IMG/VR virus record: IMGVR_UViG_3300042691_039794 | Location: 11,565 to 75,564 of that record | Length of the DNA: 64,000 bases | Source of the DNA: a virus | Direction: 5' to 3' (one strand) | Part shown: positions 2,880 to 59,689 of the stretch, piece by piece | How positions within the stretch are numbered: position 1 is the first letter of the stretch | Layout of the letters: each line of letters begins with the position of its first letter | The notes under the pieces: generated by a model | Database searches by the model: none | Told to the model about the DNA's origin: nothing | Seen by the model: the letters and a program-made list of their open reading frames with translations, nothing else | Program-made: the position numbers and the translations under genes

Positions 2880-3797
2880 ATGAACAACGAAAACTATTAT
2901 AATATATTGGGAGTGAACGAAAACGTTTCACAGGATGAACTTAAAAAGGTTTATAGAAAACTTGCAAAAGAAAAACATCCAGATGCGGGGGGAAATGAAG
3001 ACGAGTTCAAGAAGATATCAGAAGCATATGATATTTTAGGGAACGAAGAAAAAAGGTCTGATTATGATAGAAGAAGAAAAAACCCATTTGGTGGATTTGG
3101 AGACATGGGGGACATTTTTTCAAGTATGTTCAATCAAAACAAACAAAGAAGATCCGTACCGATTACAAAACTTGATATGAATGTGGGAGTTTTGGAGTCA
3201 TATAAAGGAGTGAAAAAACAAGTTTCTTATCAAAGAAAAAAAATGTGTGACCCTTGTCAAGGATCTGGTGGAAAAAAACAAACTTGTCAAACTTGTAAAG
3301 GAGAAGGGGTGTTATGGAAAGAATTTGGTAGTGGGATGTTTGTTCAGATGGTGCAAACAGTTTGTAATGTGTGTAGTGGTTTTGGTGAAAAAATAATCGA
3401 ACCTTGTTTTGTGTGTAATGGAACAGGAAATAGAGGGGAAATTAAACAAGTTGAAATAAAATTACCACACGGAGTTGATAATGGTCAATTTGTTAAATTA
3501 ACAGGTATGGGTGATTTTGCTGATGGTACATATGGGGATTTAATTGTTAGAGTTAATTTACAACCAGAAAGCAACTTTGACAAGTACGAAAATCATTTAG
3601 TTTATAATGCTTTTTTAAATTTGGATGATATCAAAAATGGAAATCTGAACGTTCCACATCCTGATGGTGAATTGAATGTTAAACTCCCCAAAAAAATAGA
3701 CACATCAATTCCTCTCAGAGTTAAATCCAAAGGATTTAAATACAACACAGTTGGAGATTTGATTATAAATCAATACTTGAGATTTGACAGAGATTAA
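2880..3797 (+). CDS. dnaJ: DnaJ co-chaperone
   Basis: J-domain with HPD, four CxxCxGxG repeats, C-terminal domain (PHGVDNGQ, GDLIV). Confidence 0.95.
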   Translation: MNNENYYNILGVNENVSQDELKKVYRKLAKEKHPDAGGNEDEFKKISEAYDILGNEEKRSDYDRRRKNPFGGFGDMGDIFSSMFNQNKQRRSVPITKLDMNVGVLESYKGVKKQVSYQRKKMCDPCQGSGGKKQTCQTCKGEGVLWKEFGSGMFVQMVQTVCNVCSGFGEKIIEPCFVCNGTGNRGEIKQVEIKLPHGVDNGQFVKLTGMGDFADGTYGDLIVRVNLQPESNFDKYENHLVYNAFLNLDDIKNGNLNVPHPDGELNVKLPKKIDTSIPLRVKSKGFKYNTVGDLIINQYLRFDRD

Positions 3798-14876: not shown

Positions 14877-16004
14877 ATGAAAGTTAAATTAGAATACGTT
14901 TGGTTGGATGGATACAAACCTGAACCAAATTTGAGAAGCAAAGTAAAAATAGTTGAATACGAGAAAGTTAAAAATGCATTTTTGGATGGAAAATTCCCCA
15001 TATGGAATTTTGACGGATCATCAACTCTCCAAGCTGAAACAGGTAACTCAGATAGATTATTAAAACCTATAAGACATTATGTTGCTGATGTTACTTCCAC
15101 AGTTTATGTTTTATGTGAGGTATTAAATCCTGATGGAACTCCACACGAATCAAACAAAAGATCACAAATTAGTCAAGGATATGAAGATCTTTGGTTTGGG
15201 TTTGAACAAGAATATTTCATTCGTGAAGAAATTAATGGAAACATATTGGGACACAAAAGAAATATTTTAAAAGGACAGGGTGAATATTATTGTGGTGTTG
15301 GACATAACGTGGTAGGTCGTTCATTTGTTGATGAACATTTAAACATGTGTTTGAATTATGGAATTGATATTACCGGTATAAACGCGGAGGTTGCACTTGG
15401 TCAGTGGGAGTATCAAGTTTTCTCTCAAGGAAAACACAAAGGTGGAGATGATCTTTGGATGACAAGATACTTCTTACTTAAAATTGCAGAAAAATACGGA
15501 TACCATATCGAACTTCACCCAAAACCATTAACACACGGAGAGTGGAATGGATCAGGACTCCACACGAATTTTTCAACTGATAAGATGAGAAATGAAGGGA
15601 ATGAAGAATATTTTATGGCTTTATTTAACGCATTTGAGGCTAGACATGATGATCACATCAAGGCATATGGGTCTAACAATAACCTTCGTTTGACTGGACA
15701 ATACGAAACTCAATCAATCGATAAATTCAGTTGGGGTGTTTCTGACCGAGGAGCGTCAATTCGAGTACCTCAAGACACCGCTAAAGAATGGAAGGGGTAT
15801 ATTGAGGATCGAAGACCGGGATCAAATGCCGACCCATATAAAATCATTCGTGAGATTGTTAACTCATTGGAAACTACTCATCAAATCTATGAAATGAAAA
15901 ATATGATGAACACATATGTTGATGTAAAACCATTGGAAGGAAAATATGGGACAAAATCAAACGATGAGTTATTAAGCGAATATAGAGAAGAAGAGGCGGA
16001 ATAA
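14877..16004 (+). CDS. glnII: glutamine synthetase type II
   Basis: EYVWLDG, LRSK, WNFDGSST, GFEQEY, NAEV..GQWEYQ, WNGSGLHTNFS, RGASIRVP, EDRRP. Confidence 0.95.
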   Translation: MKVKLEYVWLDGYKPEPNLRSKVKIVEYEKVKNAFLDGKFPIWNFDGSSTLQAETGNSDRLLKPIRHYVADVTSTVYVLCEVLNPDGTPHESNKRSQISQGYEDLWFGFEQEYFIREEINGNILGHKRNILKGQGEYYCGVGHNVVGRSFVDEHLNMCLNYGIDITGINAEVALGQWEYQVFSQGKHKGGDDLWMTRYFLLKIAEKYGYHIELHPKPLTHGEWNGSGLHTNFSTDKMRNEGNEEYFMALFNAFEARHDDHIKAYGSNNNLRLTGQYETQSIDKFSWGVSDRGASIRVPQDTAKEWKGYIEDRRPGSNADPYKIIREIVNSLETTHQIYEMKNMMNTYVDVKPLEGKYGTKSNDELLSEYREEEAE

Positions 16005-24072: not shown

Positions 24073-25206
24073 ATGGAAAATTTAAATAGTGTATGTTATG
24101 TTGGTGTGATTGGTGAAATCCGACCAATAGAAGGGGCAGATAACATAGAACTTGCAATGGTTGGTGGTTGGCAAGCAATCACCAAAAAAGGCGAATACCA
24201 AGTTGGTAATAAGGTTGTTGTTGCAACCACTGATGCTGTGATCCCACAAGCGTTATCTGACCTTATGGGGGTGACTGGTTACCTTCGTAAAGGTCAACGA
24301 GTTAGAACAGTAAAACTTCGTGGAGTTTACTCTGAATGTTTGTTAATACCGTTCAAGTACTTAGCACCAAAATCTTTAGAGAACAATGTTGAGGAAGGTC
24401 ACGACATGATGGGTATTTTAGGTGTTACCAAATACGAACCACCAGTCAAAATGGTTGAGATGAGTGTTGGAGGTAGAAAAATCAAATACCACCAAAACCC
24501 TAACTTCCATGTTTACTACAAGTTTCCTAACTTGAAGAATGTACCTGAGTTGTTCACCGAAGAAGATGTTGTTACAATCACTCGTAAACTTCACGGAACA
24601 AATGCTCGTTACGGTATCGTTAAAAAGAAAAAACTTTCTTTGTTGGATCGTGTTAGAAAGTTCTTTGGAAACAAGTGGGTTGAGTTTGAATATGTTTATG
24701 GATCCCATAATGTTGAGAAAGGTTCTGACTCTCAAGGTTTTTACTCTACCGATGTTTGGAGAACTGTTGCGGATGAATACAAGATCAAAGAAAAGTTGTG
24801 GGATTATGTGAAAACTTACTTCATTCCTCAACATTTAGGTAGTGGTGTTGTGATCTATGGTGAGATCTACGGACACGGGATCCAAAAAAACTATGAATAT
24901 GGTTTACAGGATATTAAGTTTGCAGGTTTCGATGTTGAAATCAATGGTGAATACAAAGATTTTAGTGTTGAACGAGGGATATTTAACACCTTAGATTTAC
25001 CAACCGTTGAAGTTTTGTATAAAGGTAATTGGTCTAAAGAAGAACAAGACAAACATGTTTTTGGAAACTTTATTGAAGGAACCAAAGTTCCACATGAAGG
25101 TATTGTTGTGAAGTCAATCACTGGTGATCGTCACAAAGTAGCAAAAGTTATCAATCCTGATTACTTAATCTACGGAGAGAAAAATAATGTTGGTGACTCC
25201 CATTGA
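24073..25206 (+). CDS. RNA ligase, DRB0094/Rnl2-like, with N-terminal OB domain
   Basis: PIEGADNIE, KLRGVYS, motif I TRKLHGTN, YGEIYG, EGIVVK, KVINPDYL. Confidence 0.9.
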   Translation: MENLNSVCYVGVIGEIRPIEGADNIELAMVGGWQAITKKGEYQVGNKVVVATTDAVIPQALSDLMGVTGYLRKGQRVRTVKLRGVYSECLLIPFKYLAPKSLENNVEEGHDMMGILGVTKYEPPVKMVEMSVGGRKIKYHQNPNFHVYYKFPNLKNVPELFTEEDVVTITRKLHGTNARYGIVKKKKLSLLDRVRKFFGNKWVEFEYVYGSHNVEKGSDSQGFYSTDVWRTVADEYKIKEKLWDYVKTYFIPQHLGSGVVIYGEIYGHGIQKNYEYGLQDIKFAGFDVEINGEYKDFSVERGIFNTLDLPTVEVLYKGNWSKEEQDKHVFGNFIEGTKVPHEGIVVKSITGDRHKVAKVINPDYLIYGEKNNVGDSH

Positions 25207-32075: not shown

Positions 32076-32252
32076 ATGGACAAAAGAATTATACACGAAC
32101 AATTATTGAATGAACACAGGATGTTGATCAATAAAATTTCTGATATCAAATCACAATCTGTAGAATTGAATCCTCAACAGAAAAATGAAATTTCTAATTT
32201 GGAAAAAAAAGTAAAACTAATCGCTGAAAAATTATATAATTTATACAAATGA
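32076..32252 (+). CDS. 58-aa coiled-coil protein (not in track)
   Basis: Follows TTTACA-N17-TAATTT; ATGA overlap with rfbB. Confidence 0.65.
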   Translation: MDKRIIHEQLLNEHRMLINKISDIKSQSVELNPQQKNEISNLEKKVKLIAEKLYNLYK

Positions 32253-33172
32253 AAGTAGTAGTAACAGGTGGTGCAGGATTTATTGGATCCGCGTTTATAA
32301 ATCATTTATTGGATAATTTTAAGTGTGATGTTCTTTGTGTGGATAAATTAACCTATGCCGGCGAAAGAAAAAATATAAAACATGATGTTTCTTTCTTACA
32401 AAAAGATATTTGTGATTTGACATCAGAAGACCTTGGTGAATTTGATTACATTGTACATTTTGCCGCTGAATCTCACGTAGATAATTCTATAAAAAATGGT
32501 TTACCATTCATCAGGACAAATGTAGAAGGGACATTCAACTTGCTGGAAATCTCAAGAAAAAACAAAAATTTAAAAAAATTTATTCATATTTCAACCGATG
32601 AGGTTTATGGTGACATGGCAGAGCTAGAAAAAGATTATCTTGCCAAAGAAACTGATCCTTTAAGCGGAAGTTCATATTACTCCGCAACAAAAGCCGCTTC
32701 TGACATGTTAGTACTTTCAGCGAATAGAACATATAATTTACCTTTTTTGATTACCAGAACTTGTAATAATTTTGGGGAACATCAGTTTGAGGAAAAATTT
32801 TTACCAACAGTTGCAAGGTCAATCAAAAATGGACAACCAATCCCTGTTTATGGTGATGGTAATCAAATTAGAGAATGGATGTATGTTTATGACAATGTAA
32901 AAATAATTTGTGAATTAATGTTTGATAATACTGTAAAAAATGAAATATATAATATCGGTACTGAATATAGATGTACTAATCTAGAAATAATTCAAAAAAT
33001 AGGAAAAATTATGAACATGGAAGTGACTTATAAAAATGTTCAAGACCGATTAGGACATGACAAAAGATATGGTTTGGATTCTACAAAAACAAAGAAATAT
33101 TTTAAAACGATAAAAAATGAAATCCCAAGATTTGTAACTCTTGATGATTTTCTACACAAAATGTATTCCTAA
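32249..33172 (+). CDS. rfbB: dTDP-glucose 4,6-dehydratase
   Basis: TGGAGFIGS, DKLTYAG, HFAAESHVD, STDEVYG, YSATK, DRLGHDKRY. Confidence 0.92.
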   Translation: MKVVVTGGAGFIGSAFINHLLDNFKCDVLCVDKLTYAGERKNIKHDVSFLQKDICDLTSEDLGEFDYIVHFAAESHVDNSIKNGLPFIRTNVEGTFNLLEISRKNKNLKKFIHISTDEVYGDMAELEKDYLAKETDPLSGSSYYSATKAASDMLVLSANRTYNLPFLITRTCNNFGEHQFEEKFLPTVARSIKNGQPIPVYGDGNQIREWMYVYDNVKIICELMFDNTVKNEIYNIGTEYRCTNLEIIQKIGKIMNMEVTYKNVQDRLGHDKRYGLDSTKTKKYFKTIKNEIPRFVTLDDFLHKMYS

Positions 33173-33174
33173 AA

Positions 33175-33426
33175 ATGACTGGGTTATTGATAAAAAGAAA
33201 TAACGAATGGGTTGTAAAATACGACAGAGGTCATGAGGTTTTATTTTACGAAATTTGTGAACAATCAAAAATATGGACCCAAAAAGAAAGCGTGTTAAAA
33301 TTTTTACACGAAAATGTAGAAGTAGAATTCAACTTGATTGTTAGCGGTTCTTATGATCGAAATAAACAAGAACAAGTTAGGGAATTTTGCGCTAAAATAA
33401 TACTAGTCGAACACAGTAGCATATGA
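33175..33426 (+). CDS. hypothetical protein
   Basis: 83-aa ORF. Confidence 0.65.
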   Translation: MTGLLIKRNNEWVVKYDRGHEVLFYEICEQSKIWTQKESVLKFLHENVEVEFNLIVSGSYDRNKQEQVREFCAKIILVEHSSI

Positions 33427-34058
33427 TAGATAACTATGAAATTTTAGAAAATGGACTTATAAAACAACTTGAATTTATATCTAAAATACAGGAATATAAT
33501 TTTCAATATGTTGATGAAAGGTATAATAAATATGGTGAGAAAGGACCCCAAATGGCAGGATTAAGATTTGGATATCTATTAGGTATTTTGGGATTCACTC
33601 CCGAATCAATATTAGATGTTGGATTTGGTAATGGTGACTTTTTGAAAGTATGTAAACAAGGTGTTGACAAGTGTTATGGAAACGATATTTCTGAATATCC
33701 ACTACCGAATGGTGTTGAATTTGTAAAAGATATTACTGAGAATTTTTATGACGTTATTTCTATGTTTGACGTTTTGGAACATTTTGAAGATATTTCTTTT
33801 GTAAAAAATCTTAAATGTAACTATATGTACATTAGTTTACCTTGGTGCCATAACTTTTCTGATGAATGGTTTGAAAACTGGAAACATAGAAGACCGGATG
33901 AACATTTATGGCATTTCAATCAAAAATCTATTGAAAAATTTTTTAATGAAATGGGATTTGATATGGTCGTTTATTCGGACATTGAAGACACAATAAGAAA
34001 ACCAAGTGACGAACACCCAAACATATTAACTTGCATTTTCAAAAAAAGAAAATCGTAA
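33423..34058 (+). CDS. class I SAM-dependent methyltransferase
   Basis: ILDVGFGNGDF, FDVLEH, PDEHLWHF. Confidence 0.85.
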   Translation: MIDNYEILENGLIKQLEFISKIQEYNFQYVDERYNKYGEKGPQMAGLRFGYLLGILGFTPESILDVGFGNGDFLKVCKQGVDKCYGNDISEYPLPNGVEFVKDITENFYDVISMFDVLEHFEDISFVKNLKCNYMYISLPWCHNFSDEWFENWKHRRPDEHLWHFNQKSIEKFFNEMGFDMVVYSDIEDTIRKPSDEHPNILTCIFKKRKS

Positions 34059-34973
34059 ATGAAATTTGGGTTCAAAATTTCAGGTTGTTTTGGAGATGTT
34101 TTATATTCTACACCCGTTCTTAAGTATTTGAGTAAATGTCATAACGATGTTTTAAATGTAGAAACAAATTACCCAGAAGTATTTGAAAATAATCCATATG
34201 TTGGTAAAGTATATAATCCTGAAGAAGGACAAATAATACCACACGATCAAATATTTTATGATTGTAATGGACACAATTTTGGTGATGTACAAAAACAAAT
34301 CAGAAAAATGTATTTGACTGATTATTGGTCAACACATTTAGGTTTTATTCTTTCACCCGAGGAAAAAACTATAGAATATTTCCCACAAAAACTGGACATT
34401 GATTTACCAAACAAAAAATATATTGTTATTAATCCGTCAAAAACATGGGATTGTAGAACATGGTCTAAACAAAATTGGGAAGAACTTACTAACAAAATTA
34501 TAGAGTTTGGTATTGACGTGGTTGTTGTTGGTAAAAATATTGTCTATAATGAAGACGACAAAAAAACTTCATTACAAGTTGAAAATTCAAATGTGATAAG
34601 TTTGGTGGATAAATTAAATTTATCCCAACTTTGGCATCTTTTAGAAAATAGTTCGATGGTTATAACAATGAATGCGGGATTATTACCTTTTGCTGGCACA
34701 ACTGATTGTAAAATTTTACAACTAGGAGGCGCAATAAATCCTTATTACAGAACACCCTATAGAAAAGGTTCACAAGATTACAAACATAAATTCATAAGTG
34801 GTTCTTGTGATTTGTTTTGTCAATCAGACATGAAGTACAATGTTTTAGGTGATAAAAAAATAACAAGATGGAATGGATACAGATCGCCGGGTTGTTATGA
34901 AAATAAACCAACCTTTGAATGCCATCCATCGGTTAATGCCGTTTTCAATGGAGTTTTGGAATTTTTAAAATAA
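34059..34973 (+). CDS. GT9 (heptosyltransferase-like) glycosyltransferase
   Basis: GDVLYSTP, INP...RTW, LVDKLNLSQL...IT.NAGL. Confidence 0.75.
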   Translation: MKFGFKISGCFGDVLYSTPVLKYLSKCHNDVLNVETNYPEVFENNPYVGKVYNPEEGQIIPHDQIFYDCNGHNFGDVQKQIRKMYLTDYWSTHLGFILSPEEKTIEYFPQKLDIDLPNKKYIVINPSKTWDCRTWSKQNWEELTNKIIEFGIDVVVVGKNIVYNEDDKKTSLQVENSNVISLVDKLNLSQLWHLLENSSMVITMNAGLLPFAGTTDCKILQLGGAINPYYRTPYRKGSQDYKHKFISGSCDLFCQSDMKYNVLGDKKITRWNGYRSPGCYENKPTFECHPSVNAVFNGVLEFLK

Positions 34974-36133: not shown

Positions 36134-36373
36134 ATGACAGAAAAAGAACTATATCTTCTTGGGTTTGAAAAACATCACATGGAAGAAGACGATGATTATT
36201 ATTACTACCTTGATGTAGTGAGTGGATTAGGATTTATAACCTGCACAAGTTTTCAGGCAAATGAGAACGGATGGTATGTGGAAATATTCAATACAGAACC
36301 ATCAATTAGATTCACAAAGTTTGGCGAACTTCAAGGAATACTCAATCAACTAACAAGTGCAATCGTAAAATGA
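36134..36373 (+). CDS. hypothetical protein
   Basis: 79-aa ORF. Confidence 0.7.
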   Translation: MTEKELYLLGFEKHHMEEDDDYYYYLDVVSGLGFITCTSFQANENGWYVEIFNTEPSIRFTKFGELQGILNQLTSAIVK

Positions 36374-36606
36374 TAAAACATTACCCCCAACCTAAAGAAA
36401 AATACCAACACTATAAAGGTGGTCAGTACGAAGTTATTTGTATGTGTAATCATACAGATACCAATGAACCACTTGTAATTTACAAATCACTTTCTTTTGG
36501 TTCACAATACGCAAGACCATTTTCTGAGTGGTACGATGAGGTCGAAACTAAAAAATGGGGAAATAAAGAATATTCAGTTTTAAGATTTGAAAAAATAGAA
36601 GAGTAA
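36370..36606 (+). CDS. DUF1653-family protein
   Basis: YQHYKGG.YEV...HT.T.E.LVIY...RP. Confidence 0.85.
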   Translation: MIKHYPQPKEKYQHYKGGQYEVICMCNHTDTNEPLVIYKSLSFGSQYARPFSEWYDEVETKKWGNKEYSVLRFEKIEE

Positions 36607-37778
36607 TGAATACATTAGACAAACAATACCAAGAATTACTCCAAGACATATTGGATAATGGAGTAACAAAAAGTGATCGTACAGGGACTGGAACCAAATC
36701 TATTTTTGGTTATACAATCCGTCATAATATGAGTGAAGGATTTCCTGTGTTAACAACCAAGAAAATGGCGTGGAAGACGATGGTTACCGAATTGTTATGG
36801 TTCCTTCGTGGTGATACAAATATTAAATTCCTTGTTAATAACGGTTGTCACATTTGGGATGGTGATTCTTATAAAGCATATGAAAAGTGGTACGATGAGG
36901 TAGCAGTTCATTCTCCGTTTGGAGAGGTGCCAAGAATGACAAAGGAAAGCTTTATCAAAGCGATTGGGCTTGATGATGAGTTTGCTAAGAAGTGGGGTGA
37001 TTTAGGGCCAGTATACGGTAAGCAATGGAGAAGATGGGGTAGAAAGAATGTGACTAATTACGACTTAAAGGATGTAAAAGGTTCCGACCAACATAAAGTA
37101 ATACAGGCAATTGAAAATGGTGAAGATGTTACCAAGTATGGTGTTAAAATAGAATACCAAAACAATTCAATAGACCAAATCCAAAACCTAATCAACGACC
37201 TTAAAACAAATCCTGACTCAAGACGACTAATGGTTAACGCTTGGAATGTAGGTGAATTAGACCAAATGGTTTTACCACCTTGTCATTATGGATTTCAAGT
37301 TTATACAAGAGAGTTGAGTAGTGGTGAACGTAGAGATTGGGTCATCAAAAATAGAAGTCAACAAATGCCTAAGTTTTTTGATAGATTAGGATGGGAAGGT
37401 AATGTTGCTGAAGTTCTTGAAAATTTTAATGCCCCAACCAAAGCAATCTCTCTAATGTGGAATCAACGTTCAGTAGATACATTCTTAGGTTTACCATTCA
37501 ACATTGCATCTTACGGACTTCTACTTACAATCTTGGCTAAAGAAGTTAACATGGTTCCTGACCAGTTAATTGGAAACTTAGGTGATACTCATCTTTACCT
37601 TAACCATCTTGAACAGGCGAAAGAACAAATTGGAAGAGAACCATTTGAGTTACCAACCTTAAATCAGTTCCCAACTTATGAAGGGTCAAGACCATCAATA
37701 GAATCTTATGTGGTAGGTGATTTCACACTAAAAAATTATCAATCACACGAAACAATTAAAGCGCCACTTTCTAATTAA
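36606..37778 (+). CDS. thyA: thymidylate synthase
   Basis: DRTGTGT, ELLWFL.G, PVYGKQWR, PDSRR, LPPCH, QRSVD.FLGLPFN, HLYLNH. Confidence 0.97.
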   Translation: MNTLDKQYQELLQDILDNGVTKSDRTGTGTKSIFGYTIRHNMSEGFPVLTTKKMAWKTMVTELLWFLRGDTNIKFLVNNGCHIWDGDSYKAYEKWYDEVAVHSPFGEVPRMTKESFIKAIGLDDEFAKKWGDLGPVYGKQWRRWGRKNVTNYDLKDVKGSDQHKVIQAIENGEDVTKYGVKIEYQNNSIDQIQNLINDLKTNPDSRRLMVNAWNVGELDQMVLPPCHYGFQVYTRELSSGERRDWVIKNRSQQMPKFFDRLGWEGNVAEVLENFNAPTKAISLMWNQRSVDTFLGLPFNIASYGLLLTILAKEVNMVPDQLIGNLGDTHLYLNHLEQAKEQIGREPFELPTLNQFPTYEGSRPSIESYVVGDFTLKNYQSHETIKAPLSN

Positions 37779-37781
37779 AAA

Positions 37782-38606
37782 ATGAATAAAATTTTAGAAA
37801 TTTTTAAACAGTTCAAAACTGAATTGGTGTGGATTTATTTTTTCATGTTGATTACAGAATTATCAATTCTTGCAACACCACTCCTTCTTGGAAAAAGTAT
37901 TGATGGATTGATAAACGGAAATTGGTATTGGTTAATATTTCTTGGGATTTCATACTTCATATCAAACTTTTTCAATTACAAAAGAATGGTATATGACACC
38001 AAAGTTTATACAAAAATTTACAATAGTATTGTTTTTAGATTTTTAAAAAAAAATAATGTTGATGTATCTACAAAAATTGCAAGAACCGACATGGCACACC
38101 AGATAGTTGGTGTTTTAGAGGGTTATGTTCATTATTATATTGCAACAGTTGTAACAATTTTAGGATCAATAGGTTTCATTTATTCTGAAAATTGGAGAGT
38201 TGGATTACTTGTAACTTTAGGGTTTATTTTAATACTTCTTGCTGTTTTAGTTTTTTATAAAAAAATTAAACAAGCAATCAAAGTTAGAAACAATCAATAC
38301 GAAAAAAAGGGTGAGGCGTTAGAAAAAGGTTATTTAGAGTCAATATCTTTTTTTAACAGAAGAGGAAAATTAGAAATTTTTGAATCCACACTACAGGGTA
38401 AAAATTGGTTTTTGATTGGATCAATTAAAAATTTATTTTTATTTCTATCTATAATCCTTCTTGTTACAACAACGGAAAACATAACAATAGGAAGTGTGGT
38501 TACGGTTTACTCCTATGTTAATAATTTTATGATTTCATTGTTATCAGTTCCTGTGGCTGTTGAAATGTTTTCGAGATTAAGTGATATATTAAAAAGAATA
38601 AATTAA
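37782..38606 (+). CDS. ABC-exporter transmembrane domain without an ATPase domain
   Basis: About six TM helices; PLLLGKSIDG, YDTKVYTKIY, ITIGSV..VYSY. Confidence 0.75.
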   Translation: MNKILEIFKQFKTELVWIYFFMLITELSILATPLLLGKSIDGLINGNWYWLIFLGISYFISNFFNYKRMVYDTKVYTKIYNSIVFRFLKKNNVDVSTKIARTDMAHQIVGVLEGYVHYYIATVVTILGSIGFIYSENWRVGLLVTLGFILILLAVLVFYKKIKQAIKVRNNQYEKKGEALEKGYLESISFFNRRGKLEIFESTLQGKNWFLIGSIKNLFLFLSIILLVTTTENITIGSVVTVYSYVNNFMISLLSVPVAVEMFSRLSDILKRIN

Positions 38607-38610
38607 AATT

Positions 38611-38847
38611 ATGAACAAACAAAATGATTGGAATGATCCTGTATTATCAGATGGAGATTTCCCACAAGAAAACAAAACAAAATTCCAAGTAGGAGACAAA
38701 GCAATTAAAGTTAAAGGATATAAGTTCCCTTGTACTATCGTATCAGTATTTCAAACCGTAGAAGGAAATGTCCGAGTAGTGGGTGAAATGGATGAATATG
38801 GACTTCTTCATATCTTTAACGAAGATCAATTAGAAAAACAAAATTAA
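38611..38847 (+). CDS. DfrB/R67-like (type II DHFR, SH3-fold) protein
   Basis: FxxGD..K..G..F...IV...T...E....GLLHIF...LE.N is co-linear with the R67 core; 78 aa. Confidence 0.6.
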   Translation: MNKQNDWNDPVLSDGDFPQENKTKFQVGDKAIKVKGYKFPCTIVSVFQTVEGNVRVVGEMDEYGLLHIFNEDQLEKQN

Positions 38848-39196: not shown

Positions 39197-40081
39197 ATGA
39201 AAGTTTTAAAATTAGGATCTAAAGGAAAAGAGGTTGAAGATCTTCAAAAATACTTAAAAATTAAAGTTGATGGTGATTTCGGACCTAAAACAGAAGAGTC
39301 AGTAAAAAAATTTCAAACTGCAAATAAATTAGTTGCTGATGGTATTGTTGGTGAAAAAACATGGAATGCCATGGGTTTTTATATTACCACTGAGTTATCT
39401 GAAACGATAATATCCACTGAAAAATTGATCATAGATCAAAAATACATGGATAAAGATGAGTATTTGGCAGGACCAACAAAAAAAGAATATTTGTTTTTAC
39501 ACCATACCGCTGGAGGACACGACCCTTATTCTGTTATTAAAATGTGGAATAACGACACTCGAGGAAGAGTAGGGACAGAATTTGTTATGGGAGGTCAGTC
39601 CGTGTTCAACGGCAATGACATATATGATGGGTCTCTTGTTCAATGTTTTCCTGAGGGTGCTTATGGTTGGCACTTAGGTGAAAATGGATCACAACACATG
39701 CATACTCACTCGGTTGGTATTGAAGTTTGTAATTTTGGACCAATTAAAAATGGTTTAACTTATACTGGTCAAAAGGCAAATCCACTTCAAATTGTGGAAC
39801 TTAAACAACCATTTAGAGGATCAAAATTTTATCATAGATATTCTGATAAACAAATCAGTACACTCAAATCATTCATTTTATACATTGCAGAAAGAGATAG
39901 TATTGACGTAAGAAAAGGTTTGGTACAAGAGATTAAAAGTAAAGGTGCTGCAGGTTTCGAATTCAATTCTGACGCTTACTACGGGAAAATAAAAGGTATG
40001 TGGACACACACCAACACAAGAAAAGATAAATCAGACATGTTTCCTCAACAAGAACTCATCGACATGTTATTAAGTTTGTAA
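39197..40081 (+). CDS. PG-binding domain plus N-acetylmuramoyl-L-alanine amidase
   Basis: DGDFGPKT/DGIVG PG-binding repeats; LHHTAG, WH, SVGIEVCN, HTN.R.DK.D. Confidence 0.9.
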   Translation: MKVLKLGSKGKEVEDLQKYLKIKVDGDFGPKTEESVKKFQTANKLVADGIVGEKTWNAMGFYITTELSETIISTEKLIIDQKYMDKDEYLAGPTKKEYLFLHHTAGGHDPYSVIKMWNNDTRGRVGTEFVMGGQSVFNGNDIYDGSLVQCFPEGAYGWHLGENGSQHMHTHSVGIEVCNFGPIKNGLTYTGQKANPLQIVELKQPFRGSKFYHRYSDKQISTLKSFILYIAERDSIDVRKGLVQEIKSKGAAGFEFNSDAYYGKIKGMWTHTNTRKDKSDMFPQQELIDMLLSL

Positions 40082-41016: not shown

Positions 41017-41853
41017 TTACTTAAGTAAGTTATAATATTCTTTAAAGTGTTTGATACGATCAGGTAAACCAATTGTTCCACCATTCACTCTTTTTGTTAC
41101 TGAAGTAACTGTTGCATCATCAGCACCTTTATCGCAAATCGCCCAAAGTTTATTTGAATCAAAGAAGAAAGCTGCAGACGCTAAAGGATATTTGGTTGCA
41201 ACCAAGTCAGGATTCGCAACACAATCTTCACCAATAAATTTTGTAAAGTTTGTATAGTTTGCCTTTCCTGTTAATTGGATATAACCTCTACCTCTAAATT
41301 TAAATCCTTCTTTAGATGCTTCATCTCCATTACCCATTCTTGATGCGTAAACACGAGCGGCAATCTTTTCAGGTTGACGAGCGTAAGATTCATTTAAGTT
41401 ACCAGGAAAATACTTTCCGAAGATCTTCTTCAAACCATCCGCAGAGTAATTCAAGTTTTCACTTACTGCCTTGAAATTACCTGACTCATGACCACATTGT
41501 GCCAAGAAGTGAGCTAATCTCAAATTATTTGTAATATTGAATTTCTTTGCAGTTTCAGGAATCTGAGCAAGAACCGCATCAGGAATATGACCCTTTAACT
41601 TCTCAATATTTAATGGACCTCCTGATGGGATAACCACATCCTCTTTAATAACTTCTGTGGTAGGTTTTGACTCACCAAATAGTTTAGCCCATGTTGCATC
41701 ACCAACGATACCATCATCTTTTAAACCATTCGCTTTTTGCCAAGCTTTAACCGCAGCTTCTGTTTTTGGTCCGAATTTACCTATGGCTTCTACACCTAAT
41801 TTTTCTTGGAGTTTTTTTACATCAGCTCCTTCTGATCCGACTTTTAATATCAT
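41017..41853 (-). CDS. PG-binding domain plus GH19 endolysin
   Basis: AHFLAQCGHES, ENLNYS, FRGRGYIQLTG..NY, VNGG..G..DR; start reassigned to MILKVGS. Confidence 0.92.
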   Translation of the reverse strand: MILKVGSEGADVKKLQEKLGVEAIGKFGPKTEAAVKAWQKANGLKDDGIVGDATWAKLFGESKPTTEVIKEDVVIPSGGPLNIEKLKGHIPDAVLAQIPETAKKFNITNNLRLAHFLAQCGHESGNFKAVSENLNYSADGLKKIFGKYFPGNLNESYARQPEKIAARVYASRMGNGDEASKEGFKFRGRGYIQLTGKANYTNFTKFIGEDCVANPDLVATKYPLASAAFFFDSNKLWAICDKGADDATVTSVTKRVNGGTIGLPDRIKHFKEYYNLLK

Positions 41854-41962
41854 AATGTTAGATTTTCCTATAAATAGTAAATTCATTAACAAAGTAAAGT
41901 TTTTCTTATAAAAAAATGATCAGTTCGTGGTTTTTAAGATACTTATTAGTAAATGAAAAAAT

Positions 41963-42586: not shown

Positions 42587-44494
42587 ATGAAACAACTAAA
42601 AAGCCTGTTGATCGGGCTTTTGCTATTCTTACCATTTATTGGTAAGGCACAGGTACCTGCAGCACCATCAAATGGTCTATGGGGAATTATCGCAGCCCAA
42701 TATCAAGTTGGGACAACAGCACAAGGCACAACAGATGCGAAGATCACACTTCAAAATACTACCCTAACAAAATTTGCGGGTACTCAATTTAGAGTGTTCT
42801 ACGATAATGTAGCGTTTACAAATGCAACGGTATCTTTAATTGGATCACCAACAAACTTAGACCTTCAGTATATTACAAATACGGCAAATGGTTACATTAC
42901 CATTACACTTGTTTACACAGGTCCAAGTGCGACTTACACAATACCAAATGGTGAAAGATTTTTAATTACTTTCACTCATGCGGCGGCGGCAACATTTAAT
43001 AACTTGGCGTCGATCAGTAACTTAACTTGGTCAGGACCTCAAACCTTTACACCGTATGCCGCAAAACAAGATGGTATGGATACTACGTTAAGTGTTCATA
43101 ACTATGGTGGTGTTTTCACTCCTGTTAACTTCGCTTATCACGGAACATTCACAAACGTTACTGGATCTGCGGCTAAGTATTTAAACTTGGCTTTACAGAG
43201 AAGACCGTTTGGTGGGAACACATGGACACAACACTCAACTTATGTTACTGATATCAACGGGGACTTTAGTATTTCAGTTCCTTTAGATACAACATATTGG
43301 GATGTTAGATTGGCAATCCAAGGAGACACAATGGGTGTTGGTAATATTATCTCATCAACAGATGCTCAGTTAATAAATCAGTGGGTTTTAGGAAACGGAA
43401 CTATGACTGGATTTAATTACTACTCTGCGGATGTTAACGGATCTAATAACATAACCGTATCTGATGTATGGGGTGTGTTTGGTAGAATCTCAGGAAGATT
43501 TAACTCATGGCCAAACAACACAAAAGATGTTAAATTCTTTACAGCATCTGAATACACAACAATCAATGGATCAGCAACTAACTACACATCAACTATTGCA
43601 GGTGTAACAAACTTTACATTTGATATCCTACCGGGTCAACCTGACTCAGTTGTATATTATGTATTGGTTCCTGGTGATGCTAACGGTACAGGTTATAACA
43701 TGGCTCGTGTTACTCCTATCGAAGTATTGGTTGGACCAATACCAGGTTTGGAATCACAAATCTATAATGTGATCGATACTAAAGTTGAGTATGACTTCCC
43801 TACAACAACTATAGAAGTTAATGTTCCTCATATTTCGGTTGAATCTGGAAACTTGGTAAACCTTCCTGTGAAAGTATTCACAAACGGAGAGGAGTTATCA
43901 GCACTTCAATTCGGTTTGAAATATGATACAGACCTTTTAGAATTTAAAGGAATCATTTCTTCATCAAATGCAATGGAGTGGATCACATATGTGAATCCAA
44001 ATGACGGACAAATAGATTGGGGTGGGTTTGATCAAACAAACAACGAACAAACTTTAAAAGATGGTGATGAGGTTGTTACATTACAGTTTATTGCAAAACA
44101 ACCACAAACACTTTGGGAAGATAGTCCATTGTATACTTCATTGAAGTTTGCAGGTACGAAAGACTCAAAGGATTTAACAATAACACCAACTAACGGAATC
44201 CTACAAGTATTAAAAAGTAACATGGGAGATGTTAACGGAAACACAATACAAGTTAATCCTAATCCTGTTGTAGATGAAGTTACAATCACCTTCAAAGTTG
44301 AAGAAACAACAATCGCAAACCTTTCAGTTTATGATGTGGTTGGAAGAAAGTTGATCACAATTTTAGATGGGCAGTTACCAAATGGTGAATATACCTATAA
44401 TGAAAGTTTAGGTACATTAAAACCAGGACTTTATGTGGTAACATTAACTATGGAAAATGGAGGAACAAAAGTTTCCAAAATTGTAAAACAATAA
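42587..44494 (+). CDS. secreted scaffoldin-like protein: cohesin, beta-sandwich, dockerin, cohesin, T9SS CTD
   Basis: SP ...GKA/Q; AGTQFRVFYD and SALQFGLKYD cohesin motifs; ADVNGSNNITVSD; NPNP...YDVVGR...PGLY...KIVK. Confidence 0.8.
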   Translation: MKQLKSLLIGLLLFLPFIGKAQVPAAPSNGLWGIIAAQYQVGTTAQGTTDAKITLQNTTLTKFAGTQFRVFYDNVAFTNATVSLIGSPTNLDLQYITNTANGYITITLVYTGPSATYTIPNGERFLITFTHAAAATFNNLASISNLTWSGPQTFTPYAAKQDGMDTTLSVHNYGGVFTPVNFAYHGTFTNVTGSAAKYLNLALQRRPFGGNTWTQHSTYVTDINGDFSISVPLDTTYWDVRLAIQGDTMGVGNIISSTDAQLINQWVLGNGTMTGFNYYSADVNGSNNITVSDVWGVFGRISGRFNSWPNNTKDVKFFTASEYTTINGSATNYTSTIAGVTNFTFDILPGQPDSVVYYVLVPGDANGTGYNMARVTPIEVLVGPIPGLESQIYNVIDTKVEYDFPTTTIEVNVPHISVESGNLVNLPVKVFTNGEELSALQFGLKYDTDLLEFKGIISSSNAMEWITYVNPNDGQIDWGGFDQTNNEQTLKDGDEVVTLQFIAKQPQTLWEDSPLYTSLKFAGTKDSKDLTITPTNGILQVLKSNMGDVNGNTIQVNPNPVVDEVTITFKVEETTIANLSVYDVVGRKLITILDGQLPNGEYTYNESLGTLKPGLYVVTLTMENGGTKVSKIVKQ

Positions 44495-58207: not shown

Positions 58208-58425
58208 TGAATAAAACACCATTCCAAACCTTCATCAAAGAACTTGAAAACAGAAATATGAAAGAATCTGAAATTTATCAATTGGCAAAAGAGTTGCAAA
58301 AAAACGAAAGATCAATGATTAACGGAGTTTATGATTCTGGCCATTTTGACTCTGAAATGAAAAGAACAAAAAAAAATTATTATGACAATAAATTTGATTC
58401 TTATTTTCGGATTTCTAACCAATAA
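58204..58425 (+). CDS. hypothetical protein
   Basis: 73-aa ORF. Confidence 0.65.
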   Translation: MMNKTPFQTFIKELENRNMKESEIYQLAKELQKNERSMINGVYDSGHFDSEMKRTKKNYYDNKFDSYFRISNQ

Positions 58426-59689
58426 CTTTTTTTGATCTTTTTTGTCGGTGAAAAGAAATTACAAATCTGTGAACTTCATTTTGAACCTCAGCGAGCAAAA
58501 ACCCAAAATCATTTCGTGGAATATCAAATGACGACCCATCAATCAAGTGAATTGTTTGAGATTGGTGTTTGTCATTTTTAGAAATAGAAATTAAATCAAT
58601 ACGAGACAATAAATCAAGAGATTCAAACACTTGTTTTGCAACACCCAACTGACCCTTACCGCCATCGATAATAACTAATGAAGGTAGTTCTTGTTTTTCA
58701 TTCAAAAGACGTGTAAAACGACGAGAAATAACTTCAGTGAAAGAAGCGTAGTCATCAGGACCCTCAACACTTTTGATATTGAACTTACGATAGTTTGACT
58801 TATCAGTTTTACCATTTTTGTAACGAACTAAAGCGGACACCTGACAATCACCGGCAGTGTGAGAGTTGTCAAACGCCTCAATCAAAGTAGGGACATTTAC
58901 AAGACCCAAAGATTCTTTGAATTGACGGGCAACATCATTGTATTTTCTAACGCGAAAAGGCTCAAGTTTTTTCTCAAGTAAATCAACCACAGAGATTTTG
59001 TTTTTTAACTCGTTGGCTTTTTCGAACTCCATGGAATCGGAAAAATATTTCATAGATTTTTTCAGACGAGAACGAACCTTGTCAAACTCAAAAGAAAATA
59101 CTTCTTTCATCTCATTTACAATTTTCTTGTATGAGAACTTCAGAATGTTTGAAATACAAGGAGCATTACAACGACCAAGATGAAACTCCAAACAGGTTTT
59201 GAACTTCTCGTTTGAAATGTTTTCTTCAGTCAAGTTGTAAGAACAAGATCTTAGATTGAAAATGTCATGAACCATTTCATAAATTTCATAACAAGAGTTG
59301 GAACTCGTGGATTCCAAAAGAACCTCACCTGAAAAGTTAGAAGGATTACAAACTTGTAAACGAGGAAACTCCTCATCACTTATAGTAATAAACCAACGAC
59401 GAGATCTGTCGTCTTTTGCTTTAATATTATATTTTGGCTTCAAAGATTTTATAAGTTCATCCTCCAACAAAAGAGCTTGTGATTCATCGTTTGTAGTCAT
59501 GAACTCAACATCACGGATTTCGTTTACCAAAAAAGTTGTCTTCTGATCTTTGTGATTTTTTTGAAAATAAGATTTTACTCGTTTAGGAAGATACTTCGAT
59601 TTGCCAACATAGATGATCTGACCCTTCTCATTTTTGAAAAGGTAACAACCGCTAGATTGGGGAATGTTTGAAAGTTTCTCTGTGATCAC
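58415..59689 (-). CDS. uvrC: UvrC-like excinuclease lacking the C-terminal HhH domain
   Basis: GCYLFK...IYVGKSK, PKYN, Cys cluster, FE.A, EAFDNSH, YRKFNI, DDYA, IIDGGKGQL, NEVHRF. Confidence 0.9.
   Translation of the reverse strand: MITEKLSNIPQSSGCYLFKNEKGQIIYVGKSKYLPKRVKSYFQKNHKDQKTTFLVNEIRDVEFMTTNDESQALLLEDELIKSLKPKYNIKAKDDRSRRWFITISDEEFPRLQVCNPSNFSGEVLLESTSSNSCYEIYEMVHDIFNLRSCSYNLTEENISNEKFKTCLEFHLGRCNAPCISNILKFSYKKIVNEMKEVFSFEFDKVRSRLKKSMKYFSDSMEFEKANELKNKISVVDLLEKKLEPFRVRKYNDVARQFKESLGLVNVPTLIEAFDNSHTAGDCQVSALVRYKNGKTDKSNYRKFNIKSVEGPDDYASFTEVISRRFTRLLNEKQELPSLVIIDGGKGQLGVAKQVFESLDLLSRIDLISISKNDKHQSQTIHLIDGSSFDIPRNDFGFLLAEVQNEVHRFVISFHRQKRSKKVIG

Follow-up and report, generated by a model that had tools for sequence, protein, structure and literature searches.

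The question raised by this locus is whether a protein of 78 amino acids encoded close to a phage thymidylate synthase gene is a dihydrofolate reductase (DHFR) of the DfrB type, i.e. a relative of the small, four-subunit and trimethoprim-insensitive plasmid enzyme R67, and whether it would recycle folate for that synthase. The window, which means the whole stretch of 64,000 nucleotides that was analysed, originates from a 75.5-kb IMG/VR virus record assessed by CheckV as about 26% complete, and the genome of the phage is thus implied to be about 290 kb; relatives of 274-292 kb exist. As the source is an IMG/VR virus record and phage lysins adjoin the gene, the phage can be counted among the tailed phages. 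Auxiliary genes typical of jumbo phages were noticed in the window (2880-3797, 14877-16004, 24073-25206, 32249-34973 and 58415-59689), which encode a full DnaJ, a glutamine-synthetase-like protein, an RNA ligase, a sugar epimerase with a methyltransferase and a GT9 heptosyltransferase, and a UvrC-like GIY-YIG/RNase H nuclease. A Bacteroidota host is hinted at by the gene at 42587-44494 on the plus strand, whose 635-aa product combines a cohesin domain with the Por_Secre_tail domain (C-terminal sorting in type IX secretion).

The open reading frame is located at 38611-38847 on the plus strand (78 aa plus stop, ATG to TAA). Its N-terminal tail (aa 1-22, 38611-38676) is variable, probably disordered, and absent or different in most homologs, and it is followed by a core (aa 23-76, 38677-38838) predicted as an SH3-like barrel of five strands on the basis of AF2 strands, Foldseek and VIA-align. 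A frame that is so short and annotated by name nowhere might be suspected of having arisen by chance in AT-rich phage DNA and of being no real gene, and this suspicion, which we regard as virtually excluded, is already refuted by the homolog clusters and by dN/dS. Homologs form 551 clusters at 90% identity in a word-indexed search, an exhaustive search returned, at E<=0.001, the representatives of 414 clusters made at 50%, and the ORF is under strong purifying selection, with dN/dS of 0.04-0.15 at dS of 0.57-0.93 in comparison to seven related viral loci. Moreover, it is tightly packed in a row of same-strand genes, separated from its neighbours by 4 and 1 bp, and its AF2 fold prediction is confident. 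The homologs are called "hypothetical protein" in the source records, and Pfam and PHROGs likewise give them no name. Their lengths vary from 52 to more than 300 aa with variable ends, therefore the 78-aa length shared with R67, to which the initial annotation had drawn attention, is a coincidence, whereas the disordered N-terminus mentioned along with it is reproduced by the model (pLDDT 55-59).

RNA-library contigs of relatives were considered as evidence of expression of 38611-38847 and set aside, because they show neither level nor strand and may come from carried-over DNA. This applies to a 225-nt contig from lake water which covers 38490-38714 with 3 differences, and to several marine contigs which match parts of the ORF at 85-92%. 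Habitat labels of the DNA runs, based on partial word shares only, are freshwater, lake, sediment, wastewater and "fungus metagenome".

When the ORF is searched alone, its likeness to DfrB is not significant. No match to Pfam DHFR_2 (PF06442) was returned at E<=10, with the curated cut-off of that family at 25 bits, and single-sequence searches of PHROGs and the PDB gave no PHROG and no R67 chain; VtrC, SPASM and phosphoglycerate mutase appeared in these searches and were rejected as noise. The search for PF06442 across the whole 75.5-kb record returned nothing. BLASTP of the ORF with one canonical DfrB gave an E-value of 0.076, and its comparison with a DfrB profile an E-value of 0.015 at a probability of 3%.

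At the family level the likeness goes beyond chance. Alignment A1 comprises the ORF and 143 diverse homologs (144 sequences), and its profile, run with hmmsearch against 177,635 distinct PDB sequences at E<=10, returned four sequences, all of them R67/DfrB, with no Tudor or KOW protein among the matches. The best was 2p4t, the Q67H mutant of R67, with an E-value of 0.0018 over about 55 residues and one gap of a single residue. For a comparison of families, viral contigs were scanned for the back-translated motif of the C-terminal DfrB strand, which gave one 69-aa DfrB as a seed, and alignment A2 was made of 40 canonical DfrB taken from PF06442-labelled proteins including DfrB2. Aligned with hhalign, A1 and A2 match over the whole domain (E 8.3e-6, probability 83.5%, 58 columns, again one single-residue gap), placing K33 on K32, G64 on G64, L66-H67-I68-F69 on V66-Q67-I68-Y69, and L74-E75 on L74-E75. 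The alignment with a single gap that the initial annotation had given for the R67 core was in this way recovered by both programs, as was the replacement of VQIY by LHIF. Identity of the ORF to canonical DfrB is about 21-27% across the Foldseek, BLASTP and hhalign alignments. An independent kind of evidence is offered by the ESM Atlas, where a cluster that is 100% PF06442 stands among the nearest neighbours, having 176 features in common with the protein (0.91). The DHFR_2 search that had been suggested as a check fails for the ORF alone and reaches only a part of its family, since 23 of the 144 members of A1 touch DHFR_2 when scanned singly against Pfam (best E 7.3e-5), which makes it by far the commonest Pfam family among them. 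Judged by these comparisons, the 78-aa protein is confirmed as a real, distant relative of DfrB, and the phage clade carrying LHIF falls outside the present boundary of the Pfam DHFR_2 family.

Canonical VQIY-type DfrB genes were also seen on high-G+C viral contigs of IMG/VR (L081, 6541-6750, minus strand; L083; L084, 10439-10621, plus strand). They have Pfam DHFR_2 and are annotated as trimethoprim resistance protein, and one of them is located beside a DNA polymerase III beta-clamp-like gene. Viral members of cluster I (VQIY-type) have been reported (PMC12486381).

The fold was modelled by AF2 as a single chain with A1 supplied as the alignment. Mean pLDDT is 83; blocks within residues 21-78 reach 87-95, residues 1-20 stay at 55-59 and have no secondary structure, and strands are predicted at 30-33, 40-48, 54-60, 66-70 and 74-76. 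Foldseek against the PDB ranked R67 entries first to seventh with 2p4t leading (TM about 0.82 on the target, rmsd 1.8 A), at an identity of 24-27%. VIA-align, a method independent of Foldseek, placed 1vie first among 48,161 representative chains (Z 8.6, 59 residues, rmsd 2.1 A) and as the sole chain with Z>=8, followed by chromo, Tudor and KOW barrels with Z of 7.0-7.6. The model thus predicts an R67-like, SH3-like barrel of five strands and about 55 residues; nevertheless the fold alone is not diagnostic of R67, because the chromo, Tudor and KOW barrels come within about one Z unit of it.

This closeness could be taken to mean that the protein is an unrelated SH3/Tudor/KOW-like binder of nucleic acid or protein, and that its likeness to R67 and its position near thyA are coincidental. 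Motifs of the form GD-x-V-x-K are common in SH3/Tudor/KOW-like barrels, and no single-sequence match leads from the ORF to DHFR_2 or R67. Against such a coincidence it has to be considered that the A1 profile retrieves R67/DfrB and nothing else from the PDB, that the hhalign alignment spans the whole domain with functional positions in agreement, and that linkage to thyA, described below, has been kept through changed order, changed distance and very different phages. An unrelated barrel is thus disfavoured and, in our opinion, very improbable.

The codon of K33, the counterpart of R67 K32, is found at 38707-38709 (+), and the LHIF motif of strand beta-4 (aa 66-69), the counterpart of V66-Q67-I68-Y69, at 38806-38817 (+), both according to the register of hmmsearch and hhalign. 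Across the 144 sequences of A1, G36, Y37 and H67 are invariant and K33 is Lys in 98%; the four positions of the motif are conserved at 97% (L66), 100% (H67), 97% (I68) and 96% (F69). As the invariant His of the family sits at Gln67 of R67, the Q67H mutant 2p4t is the best PDB match by sequence as well as by structure. Park, Bradrick and Howell are said to have reported in 1997 that Q67H binds both ligands far tighter, with inhibition by substrate and cofactor, and this behaviour matches the inhibition by NADPH which was reported for an LHIF homolog.

That homolog comes from the survey of Lemay-St-Denis et al. (Mol Biol Evol 2025), in which 386 DfrB homologs were collected and 148 tested (PMC12486381). 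According to this work, activity in the DfrB family is tied to the tetramer, to a positive residue at position 32 and to a nonpolar/polar/nonpolar/aromatic beta-4 motif, with no residue strictly conserved among active homologs; K32 of R67 holds NADPH and DHF by their negatively charged tails, and LHIF is listed in Table 1 as an experimentally active motif (PMC12486381). In the window protein K33 provides the positive residue at the K32 position and L66-H67-I68-F69 the beta-4 pattern. The viral cluster II protein A0A6J5PTB3, with LHIF as its beta-4 motif and 24% identity to DfrB1, conferred trimethoprim resistance on E. coli, behaved as a tetramer in SEC and reduced dihydrofolate with a kcat of 1.07 per s and a Km(DHF) of 160 uM, showing substrate inhibition by NADPH and the lowest efficiency of its set (PMC12486381). 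A homology search among longer proteins returned UFOVP972_42 (174 aa, from an uncultured Caudovirales phage), to which the core of the window protein is 78% identical and 95% similar over 55 residues with no gap. UFOVP972_42 is probably the same protein as A0A6J5PTB3, which would fit its LHIF motif, its phage source and its 24% identity to a DfrB.

The gene belongs to a plus-strand row in which a DUF1653 gene (36370-36606) precedes a thymidylate synthase gene, thyA (36606-37778; Pfam PF00303 Thymidylat_synt, E 3.1e-95; PHROG 160), encoding a ThyA of 390 aa with insertions. It is followed by a gene (37782-38606) for a multi-pass membrane protein of 274 aa, ABC_membrane_3-like (PF13748, E 1.8e-19) with no ATPase domain. 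The DfrB-type ORF starts 4 bp past the membrane-protein gene, 832 bp from the end of the upstream thyA on the same strand and inside the 20 kb applied to published cluster II, and with one gene in between it is indeed located two genes downstream of thyA, as originally described. An ORF of 97 aa on the same strand begins 1 bp after it. By their domain matches, two lysins with PG_binding_1 come next, an Amidase_2 type (39197-40081, plus strand) and a Glyco_hydro_19 type (41017-41892, minus strand), at most 3 kb apart and just downstream of the DfrB-type gene. The membrane-protein gene was found in only 4 of 80 related loci, where it is 91-100% identical, so it is a local insert outside the conserved pair, whose two genes are otherwise often direct neighbours. 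The interval between thyA and the DfrB-type gene, which measures anything from about 10 bp to 3 kb, resembles a hot spot for insertions.

Linkage to thyA among homologs, proposed as a check in the initial annotation, was found in nearly all records examined. ThyA is encoded in 45 of 49 longer viral records with a homolog, and in 43 of these 45 it lies at most 3.5 kb from the homolog (in 44 at most 10 kb). The gap has a median of 271 bp and does not exceed 50 bp in 17 records; both genes share a strand in 44 of the 45, with thyA upstream in 38 and downstream in 7. As the linkage outlives rearrangement, it reflects more than synteny passed on by descent. Deviating cases are a near-complete relative of 465 kb with thyA 195 kb away and a complete genome of 68 kb with a gap of 8.5 kb; no thyA was found in the record fragments of one lineage (L049-L053). 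The only cultured phage with a homolog is Pelagibacter phage Kolga, the only match of a tblastn search against 50,697 deposited phage genomes, in which the DfrB-like domain forms the C-terminus of gp36 and stops 4 bp short of the gene for thymidylate synthase.

Two side observations concern ThyA itself. With 390 aa against the 266 positions of the Pfam model, it contains about 120 residues of insertions, and contigs of relatives, from RNA libraries and other sources, pass over or substitute the blocks at approximately 36875-36972, 37037-37170 and 37319-37440 within thyA, which suggests that these insertions vary between relatives. In comparison to its neighbours, ThyA is much less conserved between related loci (50-70%).

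It was stated in the initial annotation that no gene of the FolA type is present in the window, which agrees with our searches: neither a FolA-type gene nor ThyX was detected, either in the window or in the rest of its 75.5-kb record, which represents about 26% of the genome. The same genes were counted in the 49 longer viral records with a homolog, each taken whole, six of which are at least 90% complete. FolA-type DHFR_1 is found in none of the 49 and none of the six, ThyX likewise in none of the 49 and none of the six, and ThyA in 45 of the 49 and all of the six. The four records with no ThyA are fragments of 6-22% completeness.

Considering all this, we believe it is likely that the 78-aa protein is a working DfrB-type DHFR of the cluster II/LHIF branch which serves the phage ThyA. 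By analogy with R67 and with the published homolog, the SH3-like barrel of 55 residues would assemble in four copies as a D2 tetramer around a single central pore, which is positively charged in the DfrB family. This pore would be lined by the beta-4 strands (L66-H67-I68-F69), which would position the rings for hydride transfer, K33 at the pore mouth would hold the charged tails of NADPH and dihydrofolate, and the transfer itself would proceed by proximity, with no catalytic side chains. The dihydrofolate which the phage ThyA releases in the infected cell would in this way be converted back to tetrahydrofolate, and dTMP synthesis would be sustained in a phage that presumably has neither FolA nor ThyX. 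Tetramer, DHFR activity and trimethoprim insensitivity may be expected of the window protein on the same analogy. The natural folate-recycling role put forward in the initial annotation is supported by homology and fold, by the key positions K33 and LHIF, by purifying selection, by thyA linkage in relatives from which FolA and ThyX are absent, and by the published biochemistry of the LHIF homolog. Weighing against it are the score of the ORF, which is below the DHFR_2 threshold, the LHIF homolog being the poorest catalyst of its set, a fold that is not diagnostic by itself, the one relative with its thyA 195 kb off, the lineage whose fragments show no ThyA, and the completeness of the record of only 26%, so that a FolA may be encoded elsewhere in this genome. 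The role is not new, as folate recycling was already proposed in 2025 for the viral cluster II homologs, all four of which have a thyA no farther than 20 kb away, in genomes without FolA (PMC12486381), and the window protein adds one member to them.

The same biochemistry can be read in another way. A0A6J5PTB3 was described as "more of a binder than a catalyst", and DfrB catalysis was proposed to have arisen from binding (PMC12486381). The protein could accordingly be a binder with the DfrB fold, either of NADPH or folate or as a tetramerising partner or regulator of ThyA, for which DHFR activity in vitro would be a side activity. Its core is more conserved than a permissive "rudimentary" enzyme needs, with H67, G36 and Y37 invariant in all 144 sequences; it is 80-96% identical in loci whose adjacent ThyA is 50-70% identical, and the C-terminal extension of some homologs echoes segments of ThyA. 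However, trimethoprim resistance in E. coli conferred by the LHIF homolog needs real DHFR turnover in vivo, a ThyA phage with neither FolA nor ThyX needs some DHFR unless that of the host serves, and in a D2 tetramer of 55-residue chains nearly all residues take part in the core, the interface or the pore, so that the conservation might need no other explanation. A mere binder is for these reasons distinctly unlikely in our view. As a related minority opinion, the strong constraint on the core of the clade, which is not what one would expect of a "permissive, rudimentary" enzyme, may suggest that the LHIF clade is a tightly constrained module which partners ThyA physically, for channelling or as a subunit sensing NADPH or folate. 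The invariant H67, G36 and Y37, a domain that outconserves ThyA, and the ThyA-like C-terminal extension as a docking device would all fit such a partnership, to which we would give a small but serious chance.

The extension was seen in many longer homologs (UFOVP972_42, i.e. P0422, aa 59-174; P0501; P0127; P0139), and echoes two segments of the phage ThyA. Its segment KEQFINRIKTDPEFSEKWG matches residues 113-131 of the window ThyA at 58% identity with a pairwise E-value of 3e-4, and the segment "..ERELSLEER...NIPTK.I.L..N" matches residues 229-293 with an E-value of 0.001. P0501 (317 aa, on a contig of 1.3 kb) runs into a full C-terminal half of ThyA at 39% identity (E 1e-38), without the central part of ThyA that bears the catalytic Cys. 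The extension could be a docking module derived from ThyA, the remnant of a fusion, or an artefact of assembly or gene calling. P0127 was also considered as a tandem of two DfrB domains, a natural model of the dimer, and was dismissed, as it has two matched stretches and yet no tandem.

Returning to the reading as a DHFR of the LHIF branch, the clade far exceeds its published description in size and also surpasses it in conservation, with 295 IMG/VR loci in comparison to four viral members of cluster II. These 295 confirmed loci were found with the pattern LHIF[NS]ExQL, which among 185,579 prokaryote species, one genome each, gave three loci, all of them in MAGs. The contigs bearing these three "cellular" loci (L086, L087 and L088) are assigned to "Saccharibacteria" (185 kb), Lachnospiraceae (115 kb) and Alphaproteobacteria (1.5 Mb), and the former two might be phage contigs placed in the wrong bin. 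In the same database the 90% clusters of the LHIF clade number 551, to which 123 longer forms are added, and those of canonical DfrB 312; the clade is thus represented by at least as many clusters, although the counts are only roughly comparable as they come from word-indexed searches. The DHFR_2 label is carried by none of the listed homologs of the clade, and the metagenome mining in the published survey went through this label (PMC12486381). By analogy with the known enzymes, a large freshwater phage lineage would close its thymidylate cycle with a trimethoprim-insensitive enzyme of 55 residues and not with FolA, and current annotation overlooks it, since Pfam, PHROGs and source records leave it "hypothetical". 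The concept has been published; what is added here is the scale of the clade and the constraint on it, and a profile built from the clade would allow routine annotation of phage DHFRs.

Among the known systems, the canonical comparators are R67 and DfrB1-DfrB2, the plasmid type II DHFRs (PF06442; 1vie, 2rh2, 2rk1; mutant 2p4t). R67 and the window protein have in common a five-strand SH3-like barrel, observed in the one and predicted in the other, of about 55 residues, a disordered N-terminus and the same overall length, as well as the equivalent of K32, the pattern of the pore strand, and G64, I68, L74 and E75 in register. They differ in VQIY against LHIF, with Gln67 of R67 replaced by an invariant His, and in the interface residues W38, W45 and H62 of R67, which are not kept in the window protein. 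R67 is a resistance cassette of integrons and plasmids, whereas the window gene is a metabolic gene of a phage. The suggestion that it bears on the origin of the resistance family is weak, because the phage clade is a distant branch with about 21-27% identity to canonical DfrB; judging by the title of a 2024 ISME J paper, Burkholderiales are the original hosts of clinical dfrB.

Much closer is the viral cluster II homolog A0A6J5PTB3, which shares LHIF and the Lys at the K32 position with the window protein, and both are about equally far from canonical DfrB (around 24%). Like the viral cluster II genes, the window gene is phage-borne and linked to thyA, and no FolA was found in its relatives; in the window, a membrane-protein gene separates it from thyA. 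UFOVP972_42 has about 115 extra residues at the C-terminus, where the window protein bears no extension, its additional part being an N-terminal tail of 22 residues. A0A6J5PTB3 was assayed biochemically; the window protein is known here by sequence and model. A bifunctional bacterial DfrB-TS fusion with the motif LHIY has also been described (PMC12486381). In it a cluster II DfrB domain is likewise functionally coupled to a thymidylate synthase of the ThyA type, as one polypeptide in contrast to the separate genes of the window, 832 bp apart. Finally, phages may have a DHFR of the FolA type, as in the case of T4 frd, which lies next to td, the thymidylate synthase gene. The job proposed for such an enzyme beside ThyA is the same, whereas its fold and mechanism are unrelated, and it can be regarded as a functional analogue only.
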